A stretch of DNA of 32,000 nucleotides from Candidatus Thorarchaeota archaeon (GCA_003345555.1 PRDJ01000001.1:30001-62000); one strand, 5' to 3'. Positions 13,951 through 21,017 are shown, counted from the stretch's first letter. Numbers and translations: made by a program. The notes: generated from the letters alone by a model not told the origin.

Positions 13951-15690
13951 TTATAGTTCTCTTGCGTCTTGCTCTCGAATCGAGAAGTTCACGAAGACAG
14001 TTGCACCGTTCTTCATCTCTTCAGAATACGCTCGTTCATACGGTCCGAAGAGATCCGGGAATCCCGAGTTGATTGCCCACTCAATCCATGACCAAGCACT
14101 CTCTTGTCCTGCCTTCTCTTCTGCGAACTCCCCGAATGCCCAACTCAGGTAACGTTCGACGTCGAATCTGGTGGCCACCAGATTGCTGGCTTCCTCTCCT
14201 GTGCGATGAGGCGCCGCCTCATTGATTTGCGCGAGCCTCCGATTCAGTTCGTCTCTCGTCGCGATTATGAGCTCCGATAATTCCAACAGGGCTGAATTCA
14301 TATCTTCAAACCTGCGTTTGCTGCGGAGCTTGGTCAACCTGCCCAACAGGCTGAAGAGCTTGGGCGAATGCAGAACGGGGAGTCCACGTGTCTTCATAGC
14401 ATCTGCGAGCCGTTCGTTCCACGGGGTATTGAAGTAAGCTCGAGGGTACTTCACGAATAGCGGAAATGGTACATTAAGGGCCTTGGCGATGGGTATGACT
14501 TGAGCATAGTAAGCGGCCTCCCCAATTCCTCCGATATGGACTGTGACGGGCAACACAAAATCCGTCATGAGCTGCCTCGAATCAACGCGTGGCGAAAGAC
14601 TACTCTCGACTGCGCTCAGGTCTGGTGCGCCGGCATTACAATCAATATCAATCTGGTCGCCACACGAAGGACATCGACCGGTCAATCCAATCCGTGAGCC
14701 GCGGTCTGCATAGTGCAACTCGGTCCTGCTGAAGTGGCACGAGTCATTCGGGCACTCATAGTAGAATGGAACATAGTCTGCCCCCCTTGAGCCCATCCCG
14801 GGCCTGAATCCATTTTCGGTGATGAGGTTGGTGGCGACTTCATGTGCTTGCAGGAACAGGGTTCTGTTGGATCGAGCGAGAAGGAACTCCATTCCGATGG
14901 TCATCAAATGCTTGATTCGCGTATCGGAGGCGGGAATAAGCGGGATTCCAAGGTCCTGCTCAACATTGAACAGGCGAGCGAGGATTCTTTCTGCCCAATC
15001 CCCAAGCGTTCGAGAGCTGACGTACGCAGACCTTGCGAGGGCAAGACAGTGCTCAAGTCTTTCTTGAAAGAGAGTATGGGCAGTCCCAGACAAGGCTTTG
15101 AATAGAGGTCTATACCCAGCCCGGATTCCTTCCTCGACCTGTGAGTACCAGTCGTGGTCTGGCAGCGGAATAGCGTGAACCGGCGAGTATTCATACCCTT
15201 CCCGAACCGGAAGACTCACGAGATTGCCAGCCTGTCCTGAGGCTGGCGTTCTTGTGTTCGTAAGTTCCGGCTGCACAATGTCGTAGTCTGCCACAAAGAA
15301 GACTGGTGACAGGTCAACTCCTTTCTCACGGCCTAGTGCTGCTACCTTTCCCGCTGTAGCGGCTTTGTTGAGGATGTAACAAGTGCCTCCCATGACAACA
15401 CTTTGATGGGACGCTTCAACAACTCCGTATGGAACGCGTTCAATAGCCGACTTCACTTTGGGTGTGAGGCACTCCAACTGCCTGTTCATGTCTTCGAGGG
15501 CCTTTCGGAGTATCTCCATCCGTTCGAGGGTGTGCCATCCGGTTTTGGTGAATGCCTCTGCAATGCTTGGTACCCTTTCTCCAATGCCACCCATCGTCAG
15601 GACCGGACCATCGTAGAGCTTCTGTGCAAGTCCTGTGGATTTCCCTTTCCAGATGAAGTCTTGATAGACCTCCACAATGCCGAGGTCCAT
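13951..15690 (-). CDS. bshC: Bacillithiol biosynthesis cysteine-adding enzyme BshC homolog
   Basis: VVEASHQSVVMGGTCYILNK matches the BshC VxxGQQxxxxGGPxYxxxK region, PVFFVADYD matches PVFWxxxED, and HIGGIGEAAYYAQ matches xxGPGExAYxxQ. Helical coiled C-terminal part. Directly downstream of bshA with a GGAGG RBS. Confidence 0.82.
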   Translation of the reverse strand: MDLGIVEVYQDFIWKGKSTGLAQKLYDGPVLTMGGIGERVPSIAEAFTKTGWHTLERMEILRKALEDMNRQLECLTPKVKSAIERVPYGVVEASHQSVVMGGTCYILNKAATAGKVAALGREKGVDLSPVFFVADYDIVQPELTNTRTPASGQAGNLVSLPVREGYEYSPVHAIPLPDHDWYSQVEEGIRAGYRPLFKALSGTAHTLFQERLEHCLALARSAYVSSRTLGDWAERILARLFNVEQDLGIPLIPASDTRIKHLMTIGMEFLLARSNRTLFLQAHEVATNLITENGFRPGMGSRGADYVPFYYECPNDSCHFSRTELHYADRGSRIGLTGRCPSCGDQIDIDCNAGAPDLSAVESSLSPRVDSRQLMTDFVLPVTVHIGGIGEAAYYAQVIPIAKALNVPFPLFVKYPRAYFNTPWNERLADAMKTRGLPVLHSPKLFSLLGRLTKLRSKRRFEDMNSALLELSELIIATRDELNRRLAQINEAAPHRTGEEASNLVATRFDVERYLSWAFGEFAEEKAGQESAWSWIEWAINSGFPDLFGPYERAYSEEMKNGATVFVNFSIREQDAREL

Positions 15691-15704
15691 TTCTGCTGTC
15701 CTCC

Positions 15705-16877
15705 TTAGCTGGCGATGGCCTCTTCGAATACCCTTTCGTACATGGGTACGATCTTGTCAGGAGAGAAGTTCTCAACTACCCTTTTTCTGCCCGCCTTGGC
15801 AAGCTTGCTGCGGAGAGAATCATTCTCAAGGATCTTGATAACCTCTTGGGCGAATTCATCGGGCTCGAAACCCTTTGTTACAATTCCATCTACTCCCGGA
15901 CGCACTAGTTCCGGCACCCCTCCAGCTGGAGTCGTAACCACAGGGACCTCGCACGCCATTGATTCCAGCAAGACAAGTGGCATTCCCTCCAAGGTTGAAT
16001 TAAGGAGGAATGCATCCGCACCGCATAGTATCTCCTGCATATTTGACCTGACGCCCAATAGATGAACATTATTGCAGAGGTTGAGTCTCTCGATTTTCCT
16101 CTCGACGTCAATCCTGCTGGGGCCGTCTCCAACAATCACTAGATGAGTCTTTGGAAGATCGTCCACCACAGTTCGAATGATATCGATGAGATCGGTCACT
16201 CGCTTCACCTCTCTGAAGTTAGAGATGTGAAGCAGCACCTTCTCATCAGGGTCGGATGATTCTGTGTCCTTTTCTTTTCTTGTTCCAACGCAACCGCTCT
16301 CGAGTTTGATTCGACAGTTCAGCATGGGGTGGAACTGTTCAACGTCTACGAAGTTTGGTATGACGTGAATCTCCCTTTGTATGCCGAGTCCATCGTATGC
16401 CTTCTTCTGAAGGAATCTTGATACTGCAGTGACTGCGTTAGCTTTCTCAGCCGTGAACTTGACCACAGGCTTGTAGGCCGGATCAATTCCAAGCGTGTGA
16501 ACATCCGAGCCGTGCAGAGTGATAACGTAAGGAAGCCCGGCTATCTCCCTGGCCATGTATGCCGCCATGGCATGCGGGATTGCGTAATGTGCATGTAGCA
16601 GGTCAAGTTTCGCGTCGCCTGCTACCTTGAGGATTTTTGATGTCAACGGTATCGTGTAAGGGGATCCAATCCCGCTGAAGAGCGGATAATCGAGCCTGTC
16701 GACCAAGTCGACGTAGATGCCCACGGGCTGTTCCCACATCAGTGCGAACGGACGTTGATAGGTGATGAAGTGTATAATGTGTCCTCGCTGAGCTAAATGC
16801 TCTCCGAGCCGAGTTGCCAGATGACCCGACCCACCCACACCGGGAAAAAGGTTCACACCAATTCGCAAGTGGCTCAC
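15705..16877 (-). CDS. bshA: N-acetyl-alpha-D-glucosaminyl L-malate synthase BshA (GT4 glycosyltransferase)
   Basis: RIGVNLFPGVGGSG, LLHAHYAIPHA, TLHGSDV, LLHISNFREVKRV and LVLLESMACEVP closely match Bacillus BshA as recalled. GTG start. Confidence 0.9.
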   Translation of the reverse strand: MSHLRIGVNLFPGVGGSGHLATRLGEHLAQRGHIIHFITYQRPFALMWEQPVGIYVDLVDRLDYPLFSGIGSPYTIPLTSKILKVAGDAKLDLLHAHYAIPHAMAAYMAREIAGLPYVITLHGSDVHTLGIDPAYKPVVKFTAEKANAVTAVSRFLQKKAYDGLGIQREIHVIPNFVDVEQFHPMLNCRIKLESGCVGTRKEKDTESSDPDEKVLLHISNFREVKRVTDLIDIIRTVVDDLPKTHLVIVGDGPSRIDVERKIERLNLCNNVHLLGVRSNMQEILCGADAFLLNSTLEGMPLVLLESMACEVPVVTTPAGGVPELVRPGVDGIVTKGFEPDEFAQEVIKILENDSLRSKLAKAGRKRVVENFSPDKIVPMYERVFEEAIAS

Positions 16878-16903
16878 TCGAGATTCGGATTTTGCTTTTG
16901 CCC

Positions 16904-16909
16904 TTTAAG
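16904..16909 (-). promoter_or_regulatory. Candidate TATA (CTTAAA) for a leaderless bshA-bshC transcript
   Basis: About 27 nt upstream of the bshA GTG, which lacks an evident RBS. Confidence 0.4.
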
Positions 16910-17007
16910 CGAGCTGGTTCAGCTAAACATGTCACTCAGAACAACTAGTCGTGCTAGGAACCTGTATGGTCCAAACCTTGATTAGATACCCGCTCTGAGT
17001 CTTTTCC

Positions 17008-17676
17008 ATGACTCCCTTATATCAGGGTTCGATTCTCGTTGTGATAGCACATCCGGATGACGAATGCATTGGCGCTGGCGGAACAATCAAGAAGCATACC
17101 GACCAAGGCGTCGACACTGATGTCTTGTGTTTGACGGGCAACGAAGTACGAAACGAAGAAATCAGGGCTGCATGCAAGGTACTCGGGGTGAGGGAGGTGT
17201 ACACGAACCAAAGAGATGACTTCGCCATCGACTGGTCTCTTGAGCAGGATATCGTATCAACCATTCTGAAGTCAAGGCCGACGGCTATCATTACCCATTC
17301 CGCGAACGACTACAACCGTAGTCATGTCCGGTGCTCAAAGATTGTGACCGATGCCGTTGAATGGGCATCCCATGTGACAATGCACGAGAACGCTGTCCGT
17401 GTTGACAGAATCTACAACATGGAGATTAACAGTCTGCATTCGCGACCCAATGTCCTTGTTGATGTGTCTGATTCGTTCGATGCGGCAATGAACGCGCTTC
17501 GAAAGCACACTTCACAGCTTCAGAAAGCCGATGGTTTCTACTTGCGGTTCTACGATGCAAGAACCCGCTTGCGTGGAGTCCAAGCAAGTTGCGAAAGAGC
17601 TGAAGCCTTTACTGTGTCGTTTCCGTTTCACGCAGGTCCATTTTACGGAAGAAACGCCGTTGAAAGCTTAGTCTAG
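17008..17676 (+). CDS. bshB: PIG-L/LmbE family de-N-acetylase, likely BshB (GlcNAc-malate deacetylase)
   Basis: VVIAHPDDECIGAGGT zinc motif, second metal His in DYNRSH and C-terminal RLRG...AEAF. Divergent from bshA. Confidence 0.78.
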   Translation: MTPLYQGSILVVIAHPDDECIGAGGTIKKHTDQGVDTDVLCLTGNEVRNEEIRAACKVLGVREVYTNQRDDFAIDWSLEQDIVSTILKSRPTAIITHSANDYNRSHVRCSKIVTDAVEWASHVTMHENAVRVDRIYNMEINSLHSRPNVLVDVSDSFDAAMNALRKHTSQLQKADGFYLRFYDARTRLRGVQASCERAEAFTVSFPFHAGPFYGRNAVESLV

Positions 17677-17688
17677 GAGCCTTGAACA

Positions 17689-18111
17689 CTAGCCGGGACC
17701 TTCGCCGCCGCCTGAATCTCCCTTCTTCCTTCTTGCGGATAGAAGTGACTTCAGTTCTCCCATCAGAGTCCCTCCTCCACCGGGAGCAGCTGCACCCGGG
17801 GCACGTGCTGGAGTTGGGGCTTTGCCAGCTATTCCCTTCGAACCGGCAACCGAACCCGCCTCACCGGCTCCTGATGGCCCCGCGGTCCTGATGCCTGCCA
17901 TTCTGCTATCCAGTTGGCCGACCCGCGCTTCGAGTCCCCCAAGCTTGGATTGAAGATCTGAGACCGTGTTCTGCAATTCCCCTATCACCTCAGCCAGTTT
18001 CAATGTGACGGTTGAGATTACCTGCCCCAGTTCTCGGAGCTTCTCGTCGGTGGGGTCTTTTAGAGCCCACTCGAAGTCTTCCATGATTCCTAGTTCGTCT
18101 TTGTCAGCCAT
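17689..18111 (-). CDS. Small coiled-coil protein with Gly/Ala/Pro linker and C-terminal Ena/VASP FAB-like basic amphipathic helix
   Basis: Heptad repeat LRELGQV...LQSKLGGLEARVGQLDSRM, a low-complexity linker, then GGGGTLMGELKSLLSARRKK. ATG 18111 or GTG 18123. TTTATA at 18158-18153 on the minus strand. Confidence 0.8.
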   Translation of the reverse strand: MADKDELGIMEDFEWALKDPTDEKLRELGQVISTVTLKLAEVIGELQNTVSDLQSKLGGLEARVGQLDSRMAGIRTAGPSGAGEAGSVAGSKGIAGKAPTPARAPGAAAPGGGGTLMGELKSLLSARRKKGDSGGGEGPG

Positions 18112-18228
18112 GGCCCGGACCACATCTTCAACTTTGAATGACTTGGTTTTGCTATAAACATTGTCTGCATATTGACTCGTGAAGTATGCTTCTGAAGTGC
18201 TTGGACTTGCACGAGCTATGAGTTCTTC

Positions 18229-19605
18229 CTATCGGATACGTTGAATCGCTTCTGCGACGATGTTCTTTGTTCGCTTCATGGTCTCTTCCGCTTGGCGAGC
18301 TGTACGGGCTTCACAAGTGATTCTTATTGCGGGCTCAGTTCCGGAGGGTCTGACCAGTATCCAACCTTCCTTCAATGATATGCCTAGACCATCGACCGTC
18401 ACCACGTCAAGGGCATCTCTGAATGTTTCAGGCAACTTCCTTGTTAAGGCTTGCATCACAGCCGCCTTCAGTTCGTTCCTGCATTCTAGCTTCGTTTTTA
18501 GAAGCGGGTATAGAGGTATTTGTCGGATGAGACTTCCGAAGCTCTGTCCTGTGCGTGCCATAAGTTCAAGGATCTTGCACGCGGCTAGGAACGGCTCTGG
18601 GGCCAGATGAAACTCTGGAAAGATGAACACGCCACTAGCCTCTCCACCCATTGCCGCCTTGGTCTCGTTCACCTTGATTGACACCTGTATGTCCCCAACC
18701 GGCGTTCTAACCGTATGCCCTCCTGCCTTCTGGACAGTCTCATCTAGGACCCTTGAACTGTCAACGGTGGTAACGATGGTCTTGTTGCTAGATGTCTTCA
18801 GGACCTCTCTTGCCAAGAGAGCTATCGTCCTATCACCTCTCACGACTTCACCGCTCTCGGTCACAAAGACAACTCTGTCAGAATCCCCATCATGAGCTAT
18901 GCCGAGATTCGCCCCTGTCTCGGGCACAATCCGGGCGAGATCTCTTAACGACTCTTCGTCAGGTTCTGAAACCCTGCCCGGAAATGAACCGTCTGGTTGG
19001 CCATTGATTGTGATTACTTTGCATGCCAGATCCCTCATGAGGTACGGCGTCAGTACGCATGCAGCGCCATTCCCCGGGTCGACAATCACTTTGAAGGTTC
19101 TCTTTTTGATGAGGTCTGCGTCACATCTCGTTCTCACAGCTTGCATGTGCTCCGTCACTGCAGTATCGATGATCTGTTCAGTACCTAGATGGTCCCAAGG
19201 TGCCACCTTGAACTTGCGAGACTCATATAGACTCTCGACTGCCTCCTCTTCTTCTGGAGTATAGCCCATGCCGTTTCGTGACCAGAACTTAACTCCAGTG
19301 TACTCTGGGGGGTTGTGGGATGCAGTGACCACAACTCCTGCATCGTAGCCATGACTCGCCGTAACAAAGGCTAGTGTCGGCGTAGGCAACATGCCCGCCC
19401 TGACGACATTGGTTCCTGTCGAAAGCAAACCAGCAGAGAAAGCATCAGCCACCATCCGTCCAGTTGTGCGGACATCGAACGCCAAGACAACCGTCCCTCC
19501 GTCAAGATGGGTGCCAAGCGACTTGCCGAGATTGAGAGCCATCTCAAGGTCGAACTCTGACCCGTAGATTTTCCTGACTCCGGTTGTCCCAAACAGCTTT
19601 CCCAA
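18229..19605 (-). CDS. Phosphohexomutase (phosphoglucosamine mutase or phosphomannomutase/phosphoglucomutase family)
   Basis: KLFGTTGVR, catalytic TASHNP, metal loop DGDSDR, GGEASG and VRPSGTEP. TTG start. Confidence 0.95.
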   Translation of the reverse strand: MGKLFGTTGVRKIYGSEFDLEMALNLGKSLGTHLDGGTVVLAFDVRTTGRMVADAFSAGLLSTGTNVVRAGMLPTPTLAFVTASHGYDAGVVVTASHNPPEYTGVKFWSRNGMGYTPEEEEAVESLYESRKFKVAPWDHLGTEQIIDTAVTEHMQAVRTRCDADLIKKRTFKVIVDPGNGAACVLTPYLMRDLACKVITINGQPDGSFPGRVSEPDEESLRDLARIVPETGANLGIAHDGDSDRVVFVTESGEVVRGDRTIALLAREVLKTSSNKTIVTTVDSSRVLDETVQKAGGHTVRTPVGDIQVSIKVNETKAAMGGEASGVFIFPEFHLAPEPFLAACKILELMARTGQSFGSLIRQIPLYPLLKTKLECRNELKAAVMQALTRKLPETFRDALDVVTVDGLGISLKEGWILVRPSGTEPAIRITCEARTARQAEETMKRTKNIVAEAIQRIR

Positions 19606-19774: not shown

Positions 19775-20335
19775 ATGAGTAGCACATACGACAGACTGTA
19801 CAAGGTCGTGGTACTTGGTGAGGGCGCTGTAGGGAAGACTGCGATCGTGACCCGATTCTCGCACGGATTCTTCAGGACCGATTACAAGACGACTATTGGT
19901 TCTCAGTTCGCCGTGAAGAACTTAGACATCAAGACCAAGGACAATAGAAGGCTCACTGTCAAGTTACAGATTTGGGACGTAGCGGGCCAGTCGCGTTTCC
20001 AGATTCTCCGGCCGATGTATTATCGGGGCGCCAGTGGTGGTATTCTCGTATATGACGTGAGCAGGCGTCGCACGTTCATAGTGCTGCAAGAGTGGCTGGA
20101 TGAGCTTCAGAAGGCCATCAACAAGAAGATACCTCTCGTGCTCGTTGCTAACAAGACCGACCTTCCAGACCGCGTTGTTACACCGGCTGAGGGCAGGGAA
20201 TTCGCCGACAAGCAGGGTATGCCCTACGTGGAATCATCTGCCAAGACTGGTGAAGGTGTCGTCGACATATTCGAGGAGTTGGCGAAGACTCTGGTTGAAG
20301 AGCATAGTCACGAAGACGAGGCCGCAACAATGTAA
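19775..20335 (+). CDS. Rab-like small GTPase (Ras superfamily)
   Basis: G1 GEGAVGKT, G2 TTIG, G3 WDVAGQ, G4 NKTD, G5 SSAK. Rab-family motifs KLQIW, YYRGA and LVYDVS. Confidence 0.95.
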   Translation: MSSTYDRLYKVVVLGEGAVGKTAIVTRFSHGFFRTDYKTTIGSQFAVKNLDIKTKDNRRLTVKLQIWDVAGQSRFQILRPMYYRGASGGILVYDVSRRRTFIVLQEWLDELQKAINKKIPLVLVANKTDLPDRVVTPAEGREFADKQGMPYVESSAKTGEGVVDIFEELAKTLVEEHSHEDEAATM

Positions 20336-20411: not shown

Positions 20412-21017
20412 ATGACGAAGCCTGACGAATATTACGCTGCCAACGTATTTCCTCCTCTTGCATGGGCGCTCGAACTCTATTTCAAGCAGGGGCGTCGTTC
20501 AAAGGAGACACCGGTGGTTGAGATTGCATTTTCTGCAGGAGAGCACAAGGCGGCGCTCCGTACGCAGGGACAGCACGAAATCGTGGTCTGGTTCTCCAAG
20601 CAGGAAGTCTTTCTGAGACCTCGGTGTACTTATGACAAGGACTGCAAATTCATGGGGCCGCGGATTAATGCCCGGGACAGAGAGGCCGTCAAGGCGCTGC
20701 CGTGGGACAAGACAGATCAAACCAAGTTCTTCAAGCCAACTCGTGACTGGGTGCTCAAGTTGAATCTCGATTTCACGACCTTGGTTAGGGCTCTGGTGAC
20801 TGTCTGTGACAGGATGGTGACCATTCCACTTACAACACGCTACGGTAAGACCTTCGACAAGTTCGATGATTACCGTCGTCACAAATGGCCGGAGGATGCG
20901 ACCCCTGACAACAAGTCTCGCCTTCTTGAGGAAGTGCTCTTGAGGGTGGCATTCTGGTTCCAGACAGCAGCTGATGTCGGGGCACTGAAAAAGGCTCAGG
21001 CCAATCAACATTCATAA
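20412..21017 (+). CDS. Hypothetical protein, 201 aa
   Basis: ORF with ATG fills the gap between the GTPase and the kinase on the same strand. No family recognised. Confidence 0.7.
   Translation: MTKPDEYYAANVFPPLAWALELYFKQGRRSKETPVVEIAFSAGEHKAALRTQGQHEIVVWFSKQEVFLRPRCTYDKDCKFMGPRINARDREAVKALPWDKTDQTKFFKPTRDWVLKLNLDFTTLVRALVTVCDRMVTIPLTTRYGKTFDKFDDYRRHKWPEDATPDNKSRLLEEVLLRVAFWFQTAADVGALKKAQANQHS

Follow-up and report, generated by a model that had tools for sequence, protein, structure and literature searches.

A small Asgard archaeal protein family with an N-terminal coiled coil, a disordered tether and a C-terminal helix that resembles the F-actin-binding segment of VASP

Introduction

In human VASP, the GAB lies at residues 223–239, the site that binds F-actin (FAB) has been mapped to residues 259–278, and the tetramerisation coil lies at residues 343–380 (PMC10340426). 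The VASP segment that an earlier note on this DNA had quoted is correctly this FAB. For the PRD + WH2 arrangement of WASP/WAVE proteins, PMC12050087 cites Bieling et al. 2018 for a distributive polymerase activity. In Asgard archaea, current cytoskeleton work names only profilins and gelsolins as actin regulators, and crawling Asgard cells are without known filament polymerases such as formins and Ena/VASP (PMC13716822). Asgard gelsolins also carry the short WH2-like actin-contact motifs LRRV and LVDV (PMC7444086, PMC9433394). No published description of the family presented below was found; the literature on Asgard actin regulation covers profilins, gelsolins and WH2-like linkers inside gelsolins.

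The gene and its promoter

The protein discussed here, P0001, is encoded on the minus strand at 17689–18111 of the window (the whole stretch of 32,000 nucleotides that was analysed). It consists of 140 amino acids followed by a stop codon, and the coding sequence is supported by an open frame, by orthologues and by contigs from an RNA library. The earlier note had located both the open frame and its C-terminal motif exactly: GGGGTLMGELKSLLSARRKK (residues 111–130), which can be written GGGG-TLMGELKSLLSARRKK, is found at 17781–17722. Translation starts at the ATG at 18111, which is common to the orthologues (MADKDELG...; pattern M-[AP]-x-[KED]-D-E-L). A GTG start at 18123, which would give a 144-aa form, was rejected since the four-codon extension is not conserved in orthologues.

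The gene has a promoter element of its own, ACAATGTTTATAGC, at 18151–18164 on the minus strand, made up of a BRE-like element and the TATA box TTTATA (18158–18153), and located 47 nt upstream of the ATG. The position of the hexamer is conserved among Thor orthologues. Of 69 distinct Thor orthologues, 62 have a TATA-like hexamer 30–70 nt 5′ of the ATG, with 54 of these hexamers falling in the 45–49 nt bin, so the TATA-like element claimed for this gene is both real and conserved. Most of the Thor upstream regions listed share the context ...CAAT[GC]TTTATAGC. In addition, a wetland metatranscriptome library (X6) has contigs on 17534–17805, 17866–18022 and 17993–18114, which cover the P0001 ORF at a likeness of at least 95%; such contigs record presence in an RNA library, not an expression level or a transcript end. 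Within the stretch compared, the contigs leave the neighbouring genes uncovered, which carries no information about those genes. P0001 is thus a real, transcribed gene with its own promoter.

Architecture of P0001

Modelling of P0001 with AlphaFold2 on a 21-sequence alignment gives three helices, at residues 3–18, 22–76 and 116–132. The N-terminal head (residues 1–21; 18049–18111, minus strand) is defined by invariant columns and by a head profile, and contains the Thor-invariant motif FEWAL.DP. The long helix that follows (residues 22–76; 17884–18048, minus strand) is delimited by AlphaFold2 at a pLDDT above 90, with values of 83–96 over residues 21–70, and has the pattern of a canonical heptad coiled coil. 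Read from the sequence, the a/d positions 46, 50, 53, 57, 60, 64, 67, 71 and 74 form nine consecutive hydrophobics with 4,3,4,3 spacing (residues 46–74), with Leu/Ile at one set of positions and Val/Leu/Met at the other. By this pattern, the coil is a canonical left-handed coiled coil, and P0001 is probably a parallel coiled-coil oligomer, either a dimer or a trimer.

The long helix is followed by a Gly/Ala/Pro/Ser linker (residues 77–115; 17767–17883, minus strand), which ends in GGGG (17781–17770) and is predicted by AlphaFold2 to be disordered, at a pLDDT of about 43–45. The N-terminal coiled coil of about 50 aa and the Gly/Ala/Pro linker before the motif, both described in the earlier note, are therefore borne out by the heptad and the modelled helix 22–76 and by the disorder of residues 77–115. 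The putative C-terminal docking helix, LMGELKSLLSARRKK (residues 116–130; 17722–17766, minus strand), carries the FAB-like motif and is delimited by the modelled helix 116–132 and by the conservation of E119, L120 and K121. Finally, a variable tail rich in Gly, Asp and Ser (residues 131–140; 17692–17721, minus strand) is without conservation in alignments A1 and A3. Searches of Pfam, PDB and Atlas with the whole of P0001 return coiled-coil noise below threshold and clusters annotated “hypothetical protein”.

Distribution of the family

The close relatives of P0001 have 43–70% identity to it, are all Thorarchaeota, and are annotated “hypothetical protein”. These Thor members keep the head, with the invariant columns F13, E14, W15, A16, L17, D19 and P20, the coil, and a tail of the form [LM]MGELKxLLAARR[KR]K. 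The linker varies in length among the relatives and is nearly absent in one homologue (P0023). P0001 has all of the features that define the wider family: a helical head, a heptad coil, a low-complexity Pro/Ala linker, a C-terminal ..ELK.[LA][LF].[AKR][RLM][KR] helix and a length of 120–190 aa.

A profile of the whole protein matches 314 of 400 Asgard genomes, where some of the weak matches are to the coiled coil only. A head-only profile (A6; 47 positions, without the heptad region) matches 260 of the 400, almost always as one copy per genome in an ORF of 120–190 aa. Its matches are confined to ORFs of 120–200 aa except for one 410-aa ORF with a HEAT-like N terminus. By genome family, the head profile is found in 77/85 Thor, 13/14 f21, 120/135 f22, 18/19 f14 and 4/4 f29 genomes and in others too, and among the 400 genomes it has no match in f3–f13 or f23–f27, several of which are actin-bearing. 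A search for homologous proteins found no longer fused forms of the family at E≤0.01, which is weak evidence on this point. Tandem paralogues, as two adjacent genes of 100–150 aa, were observed in four genomes of families f17 and f18 (L150/L155, L151/L156, L153/L158 and L154/L159).

Named members belong to the Thorarchaeota, Promethearchaeota, Hodarchaeota, Hermodarchaeota and Odinarchaeota, including Odinarchaeum yellowstonii LCB4, and no named database member from outside the Asgard archaea was found. Fourteen members of different lineages form one cluster by blastp at E≤1e-6. No eukaryotic protein appeared in the sequence searches. The search for related loci used a Thor-specific FEWAL pattern (alignment A2), and its scope is that pattern, not the tail motif. 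Actin turned up in 53 of the 61 Asgard genomes sampled, and the actin of the present genome scores 445 bits. Every named homologue is from an Asgard archaeon, a group that carries actin. By these searches, the P0001 family is unnamed, single-copy and restricted to Asgard archaea (Thor, Loki, Hod, Odin and others).

Conservation and modularity of the tail motif

The motif is conserved in orthologues, and the tail helix is the best-conserved region in a family that extends over Thor, Loki, Hod and Odin lineages. Across 34 diverse Asgard members, the sole invariant or nearly invariant residues of the whole protein are E119, L120 and K121 of the tail. Such conservation on the polar face of the helix is as expected of a specific protein-docking peptide. 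The family consensus of the tail is P.S.R..L..ELK.LF.KRK, and outside Thor it reads P-[MIV]-[SN]-[PLA]-x-[RK]-x-x-[LIM]-x-x-E-L-K-x-[LA]-[FL]-x-[KR]-[RLM]-[KR]. In Thor members the S.R part is replaced by a Gly run, with at least three Gly just before the helix in 40 of 66; this poly-Gly run and the ARRKK ending are Thor-specific features. In several lineages the tail has two or three basic residues (KMRSQTE) and then acidic ones, and in Loki orthologues the helix is followed by an acidic run, DDDDDD.

The proline content of the linker also varies with lineage. Runs of at least four Pro are found in 14 of 31 non-Thor members and runs of at least five in nine of them, typically 10–20 residues before the tail helix. 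The proteins of L. ossiferum and MK-D1 have two or three copies of PPPPPG, and Hod-type proteins contain PPPPPPP. Among the 66 Thor members the longest Pro run is at most four, and P0001 has no Pro run longer than one. This means that profilin-type polyproline is lacking from P0001 and is present in 14 of the 31 non-Thor relatives (at least four Pro), where profilin binding is putative.

The ELK.LF motif is modular, judging from where it recurs. A 298-aa ORF of a 5.8-Mb genome (L170:1312-2205, minus strand) has three copies, one at either terminus and one internal, and a Cys-rich middle. In a 697-aa ORF (L167:670-2760, plus strand), the motif lies mid-protein after a polyPro tract, and the C-terminal part has a hydrophobic, predicted membrane segment. 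A 338-aa long form with the motif and a Lys-rich end is found at L172:1102-2115 (minus strand). No Pfam domains were found in these three ORFs. In eukaryotes, short actin-binding modules are reused in a modular fashion.

Likeness to the VASP FAB

The ungapped 14-residue alignment of the P0001 tail with VASP has been reported to contain seven identities, and a recount gives the same number. This count alone is not by itself remarkable, as windows with at least 7/14 identities occur five times in the 1.09 million residues of six-frame ORFs from this genome. The BLOSUM62 score of the P0001 14-mer against VASP is 36, which is unique among these ORFs, the next best being 29. A second measure comes from a tail HMM of 27 columns, built on 25 diverse members. 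The FAB 20-mer scores 16.0 bits against this profile of all members (best background stretch 9.3 bits), 15.5 bits against a Thor-only profile (best background 11.9) and 12.8 bits against a non-Thor-only profile (P0001 15.5; best background 6.0). With each of the three profiles, the FAB comes second only to P0001 among the 1.09 million residues of the genome. Since the profile without Thor still matches the FAB, the likeness does not arise artefactually from the Gly run of Thor members. Of the VASP-like features claimed earlier, then, the FAB resemblance stands, while the poly-Gly and the ARRKK ending, which bring the Thor tail nearest to VASP, are particular to Thor and are not family-wide.

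Alignment of the tail with the FAB by hhalign covers 18 columns at P=1.5e-6. For the GAB of VASP, the tail profiles give −0.5 to −3.2 bits and hhalign gives no alignment. Against 177,635 distinct PDB sequences, the best single stretch found by the tail profile has 11.1 bits, and the top matches are designed helical peptides. On the Eisenberg scale, the hydrophobic moment and mean hydrophobicity are 0.16 and −0.30 for the tail and 0.16 and −0.31 for the FAB. One difference is that the E-L-K which is nearly invariant in the family reads E-M-N in VASP. Taken at the level of sequence profiles, the likeness is specific to the FAB type and is one of a short motif only, about as strong as an 18-residue match can be. 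No structure that shows how the FAB contacts actin is known to us, and the likeness is one of pattern.

The best match to the Thor tail profile elsewhere in the genome (11.9 bits) is the active-site stretch GDLHGELKSALAARD of a metallophosphatase (G000:C81, ORF from 8638, plus strand). This second genome match falls on the GDxHG motif of the enzyme and was set aside as a chance match, useful as a negative control.

Comparison with Ena/VASP, WASP/WAVE and other short motifs

P0001 shares with the Ena/VASP EVH2 module an oligomerising coiled coil and a helix, preceded by poly-Gly, of the form [LM]M.E[LM]..[LM]L.ARR[RK]K. The non-Thor relatives further share polyPro just upstream of the helix, much as the loading site of VASP precedes the GAB. 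However, the coil of P0001 is N-terminal and a canonical heptad, and the EVH1, GAB and VASP_tetra elements of VASP are missing. WH1/EVH1 gave no match for P0001 and is not among the 25 Pfam families most often matched by the 34 members at E≤10, and VASP_tetra is not among the Pfam matches returned for P0001 or for family members. The lack of an EVH1 domain and of a long polyproline tract in P0001 had been recognised before. Membership of P0001 in Ena/VASP is rejected on these grounds, with the polyproline absent from the Thor clade as a whole, and the term “Ena/VASP-like” does not hold as a statement of family.

The order of parts in WASP/WAVE PRD + WH2 proteins is the same, with an N-terminal helical or oligomerising region, a Pro-rich region and a short helix of actin-binding type. 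The acidic tail of Loki members is also reminiscent of the VCA. The family tail nevertheless differs in lacking WH2 traits, a C region and a Trp-containing acidic region, and any link of the family to Arp2/3 is purely speculative. WH2 (PF02205) is not among the Pfam matches returned at E≤10, no WH2, thymosin or MIM chain is among the PDB matches of the tail profile (177,635 sequences, E≤10), and P0001 has no L[KR][KR][VT] motif of the LKKT/V type. Identification of the tail as a WH2 is rejected on this evidence and because the helix runs straight into the basic cluster. The ESCRT-III MIM1 motif, (D/E)xxLxxRLxxL(K/R), was likewise rejected by inspection of alignment A5: the hydrophobic spacing fits, but the central Arg corresponds to the invariant Glu, and a Leu/Phe comes after the third hydrophobic.

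Gene neighbourhood

In Thor loci, the P0001-type gene sits between a phosphohexomutase gene and a PIG-L/GT4/BshC-like cluster. Phosphohexomutase (PMM) is found in 88/88 Thor loci, PIG-L in 85/88, GT4 in 78/88 and BshC-like in 52/88, counts that are limited by flank length. In the window, this bacillithiol-type set of BshC-like (Rossmann-like_BshC, 51.8 bits), GT4, PIG-L deacetylase and phosphohexomutase genes occupies 13951–17676 and 18229–19605. A Ras/Rab-like small GTPase (Pfam Ras, 170.6 bits) is encoded at 19775–20335 on the plus strand, 1.7 kb from the P0001 gene. It is followed at 20412–21017, also on the plus strand, by a 201-aa ORF that has no Pfam family and adjoins the gene in 3/88 Thor loci.

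Other lineages have other neighbours. In two of three Loki-type loci (L022 and L023), an Elf1-like gene (Zn_ribbon_Elf1, 60.6 bits) lies directly upstream, and in the third (L025) an Elf1-like gene lies about 2 kb off on the opposite strand. Elsewhere the neighbours are UbiA, molybdopterin oxidoreductase, UDG, methyltransferase and a VTT-domain protein. No cytoskeletal gene was found as a conserved neighbour, and synteny is only lineage-specific. Gene order thus gives no functional hint.

Abundance and Lokiactin co-IP in L. ossiferum

The data of a study on crawling motility (preprint 10.1101/2025.11.30.690169, published as PMC13716822) bear on the orthologue in L. ossiferum. Mapping of locus tags by three anchors identifies this orthologue as GNAMCCOK_02219. 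The anchors are the actin gene at 3.92 Mb (GNAMCCOK_03343), a 481-aa ORF of 53.86 kDa average mass, which is the nearest fit to the listed 53.82 and was taken as 02268, and the Elf1-like gene directly upstream, which is 02218 (24.03 kDa average mass; listed 24.01). In the whole proteome, GNAMCCOK_02219 has a mean log2 intensity of 18.47 and stands at about rank 430–480, as estimated from its place in the abundance-sorted list. Most gelsolins and profilins are within the top 500 of 3,061 L. ossiferum proteins (PMC13716822). The orthologue is made at about the level of gelsolins and profilins.

In the Lokiactin co-IP, one profilin, five gelsolins and an Arf GTPase are enriched (PMC13716822). GNAMCCOK_02219 is not among the co-IP rows listed, which span log2 ratios of +10 to −1.06; the full table runs on for a further 841 rows. 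This absence among the rows listed counts weakly against a stable complex with Lokiactin. Micromolar, multivalent and filament-dependent binding, as expected of a FAB-like peptide, would be compatible with it, and low-affinity binders can be lost in washes. The neighbouring Elf1-like zinc-ribbon protein GNAMCCOK_02218 (L022:7235-7852, plus strand) has a C-terminal extension that is long and acidic/coiled. This protein does show enrichment with Lokiactin in the co-IP (log2 1.36, adjusted p 0.034).

Proposed function and alternatives

In the proposed mechanism, the head and heptad helix of this small Asgard adaptor would assemble a parallel coiled-coil oligomer, in which each chain holds out the helix LMGELKxLLAARRKK on a floppy tether of 40 residues. 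The helix would be an actin docking peptide that binds filaments as short basic amphipathic helices such as the VASP FAB do, and as an oligomer the protein would act on Thor actin filaments as a multivalent side-binder, bundler or tether. In the Loki, Hod and Odin relatives, polyproline would add recruitment of profilin-actin, by the logic of Ena/VASP and of the WASP-family PRD + WH2. That P0001 may be an oligomeric adaptor whose tethered helix docks on actin is put forward tentatively, and with less than even confidence; the actin binding itself is plausible, at a similarly cautious level. In its favour are the conservation of the helix across lineages, the profile match to the FAB, the polyproline just before the helix in non-Thor members, the reuse of the motif as a module, the confinement of named homologues to Asgard archaea together with the frequent presence of actin there, the abundance of the L. 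ossiferum orthologue, and a hydrophobic moment and mean hydrophobicity like those of the FAB.

For P0001, the proposal is better put as a bundler or side-binder. The earlier suggestion of an elongation factor is unlikely here, as profilin-type polyproline is missing from the linker of this Thor protein, and the polyproline-bearing relatives would be better candidates for polymerase-like activity. Several observations count against actin as the partner. The L. ossiferum orthologue is not among the co-IP rows listed, the head profile is absent from several actin-bearing Asgard families, WH2 identity of the tail was rejected and the GAB of VASP has negative scores, and there is no conserved cytoskeletal neighbour. 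In addition, the DDDDDD run after the Loki helix would be of no help for binding acidic filaments.

The main rival to actin carries nearly the same weight and is, like it, a serious possibility that we would not call probable. Here the scaffold is the same and the tail docks on another conserved Asgard protein (e.g. a small GTPase, a roadblock/longin regulator, an EF-hand protein or the ESCRT machinery), while the Pro tracts serve another reader and the FAB likeness reflects a generic basic amphipathic helix. The co-IP, in which the L. ossiferum orthologue is not among the enriched rows, is in keeping with such a partner, as are the E-L-K in place of the E-M-N of VASP, the designed helical peptides that lead the PDB matches of the motif profile, and the Ras-family GTPase 1.7 kb away, which lies within 3 kb in 35/88 Thor loci. 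However, gene order conserved across lineages indicates no alternative partner, and a generic helix fits poorly with a FAB that outscores every stretch of the genome (P0001 aside) and every single PDB stretch. The reading of the Pro tracts cuts both ways. Loki profilins are reported not to bind VASP polyproline, but in Asgard archaea no polyproline reader other than profilin has yet been characterised (PMC8410842), and polyPro beside an actin-binding-like helix is a specific combination.

The remaining alternatives concern the basic helix or its ancestry. A C-terminal basic helix after a flexible linker is an arrangement typical of membrane-targeting sequences, and with its net charge of +4 the helix of P0001 could insert into anionic membrane as in MinD/FtsA while the coiled-coil head recruits cargo. 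This is improbable, given that the hydrophobic moment (0.16–0.35) and mean hydrophobicity (about −0.3) fall short of those of typical membrane-seeking helices, that the polar face has an invariant Glu and Lys, which would be unusual for a lipid binder, that six Asp follow the helix in Loki orthologues, and that the motif occurs at the N terminus and mid-protein as well. By the same heuristic test, a MinD/FtsA-type helix was rejected for the tail itself (moment 0.16, mean hydrophobicity −0.30). Distinctly improbable is a role with nucleic acids, whether through RNA or DNA binding by the RRKK tail or through joint action with the Elf1-like elongation factor. The basic tail and the adjoining Elf1-like gene in the Loki-type loci L022 and L023 would agree with it, but that adjacency is limited to one lineage and Thor synteny is different, the tail in several lineages has only two or three basic residues (KMRSQTE) before acidic ones, and the protein has no nucleic-acid-binding fold.

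The last alternative is that the family is a true homologue of the Ena/VASP EVH2 module, inherited by eukaryotes from an Asgard-related host. The profile-level FAB match and the combination of oligomerisation, Pro-rich and FAB-like elements in one protein speak for common descent. The match covers only 18 residues, though, the domain order differs, the EVH1, GAB and VASP tetramerisation domain are absent, and no eukaryotic protein came up in the sequence searches. To our knowledge, Ena/VASP is confined to Amorphea and has not been traced to the last eukaryotic common ancestor, in which case vertical descent would need many losses. Such ancestry is highly improbable, and because of this confinement the VASP likeness is most likely convergence on a binding mode, not common descent.

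If actin is the partner, the family could amount to a third class of Asgard actin regulator beside profilin and gelsolin, a minimal oligomer whose tethered FAB-like helices, joined by polyproline in Loki, Hod and Odin lineages, bundle filaments or feed profilin-actin to growing ends. We consider this wider claim rather doubtful. Were it true, the tethered-polymerase logic seen in Ena/VASP and WASP would predate eukaryotes, whether it was already present or came about in parallel. As a conserved, abundant and Asgard-only family with a coil, a Pro-rich tether and a FAB-like helix, it is a concrete candidate for the missing activity. P0001 is small and soluble-looking, and the candidate is directly testable; rabbit actin has served before in assays of Thor gelsolins, and cultures of L. 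ossiferum, an actin antibody and a proteome are available. Should the partner be something other than actin, the family would still be a widely conserved Asgard adaptor that carries a modular docking peptide and lacks annotation, and the identity of the partner would be informative.

Other proteins of similar build or context

The P10 protein of baculoviruses consists of a coiled coil, a Pro-rich linker and a basic tail, and associates with the host cytoskeleton. It has the same three-part build and size as the P0001 family. The Pfam family NPV_P10 is matched by 10 of 34 family members, with E no better than 0.0078 and over the coiled coil only. These matches are too weak to count as a sign of homology, and coiled-coil noise is the best reading of them.

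Asgard gelsolins and profilins (Thor 1DGelX/2DGel, Loki 2DGel) occur in the same organisms as the P0001 family and at similar abundance, but have unrelated folds. The only long Thor gelsolin ORF found (L177:986-2008, minus strand) has no match to any profile of the P0001 family. It encodes 340 aa, with an N-terminal gelsolin domain, a Pro/Thr/Ala-rich linker of about 110 residues and an uncharacterised C-terminal domain, and is possibly of the published 1DGelX type.
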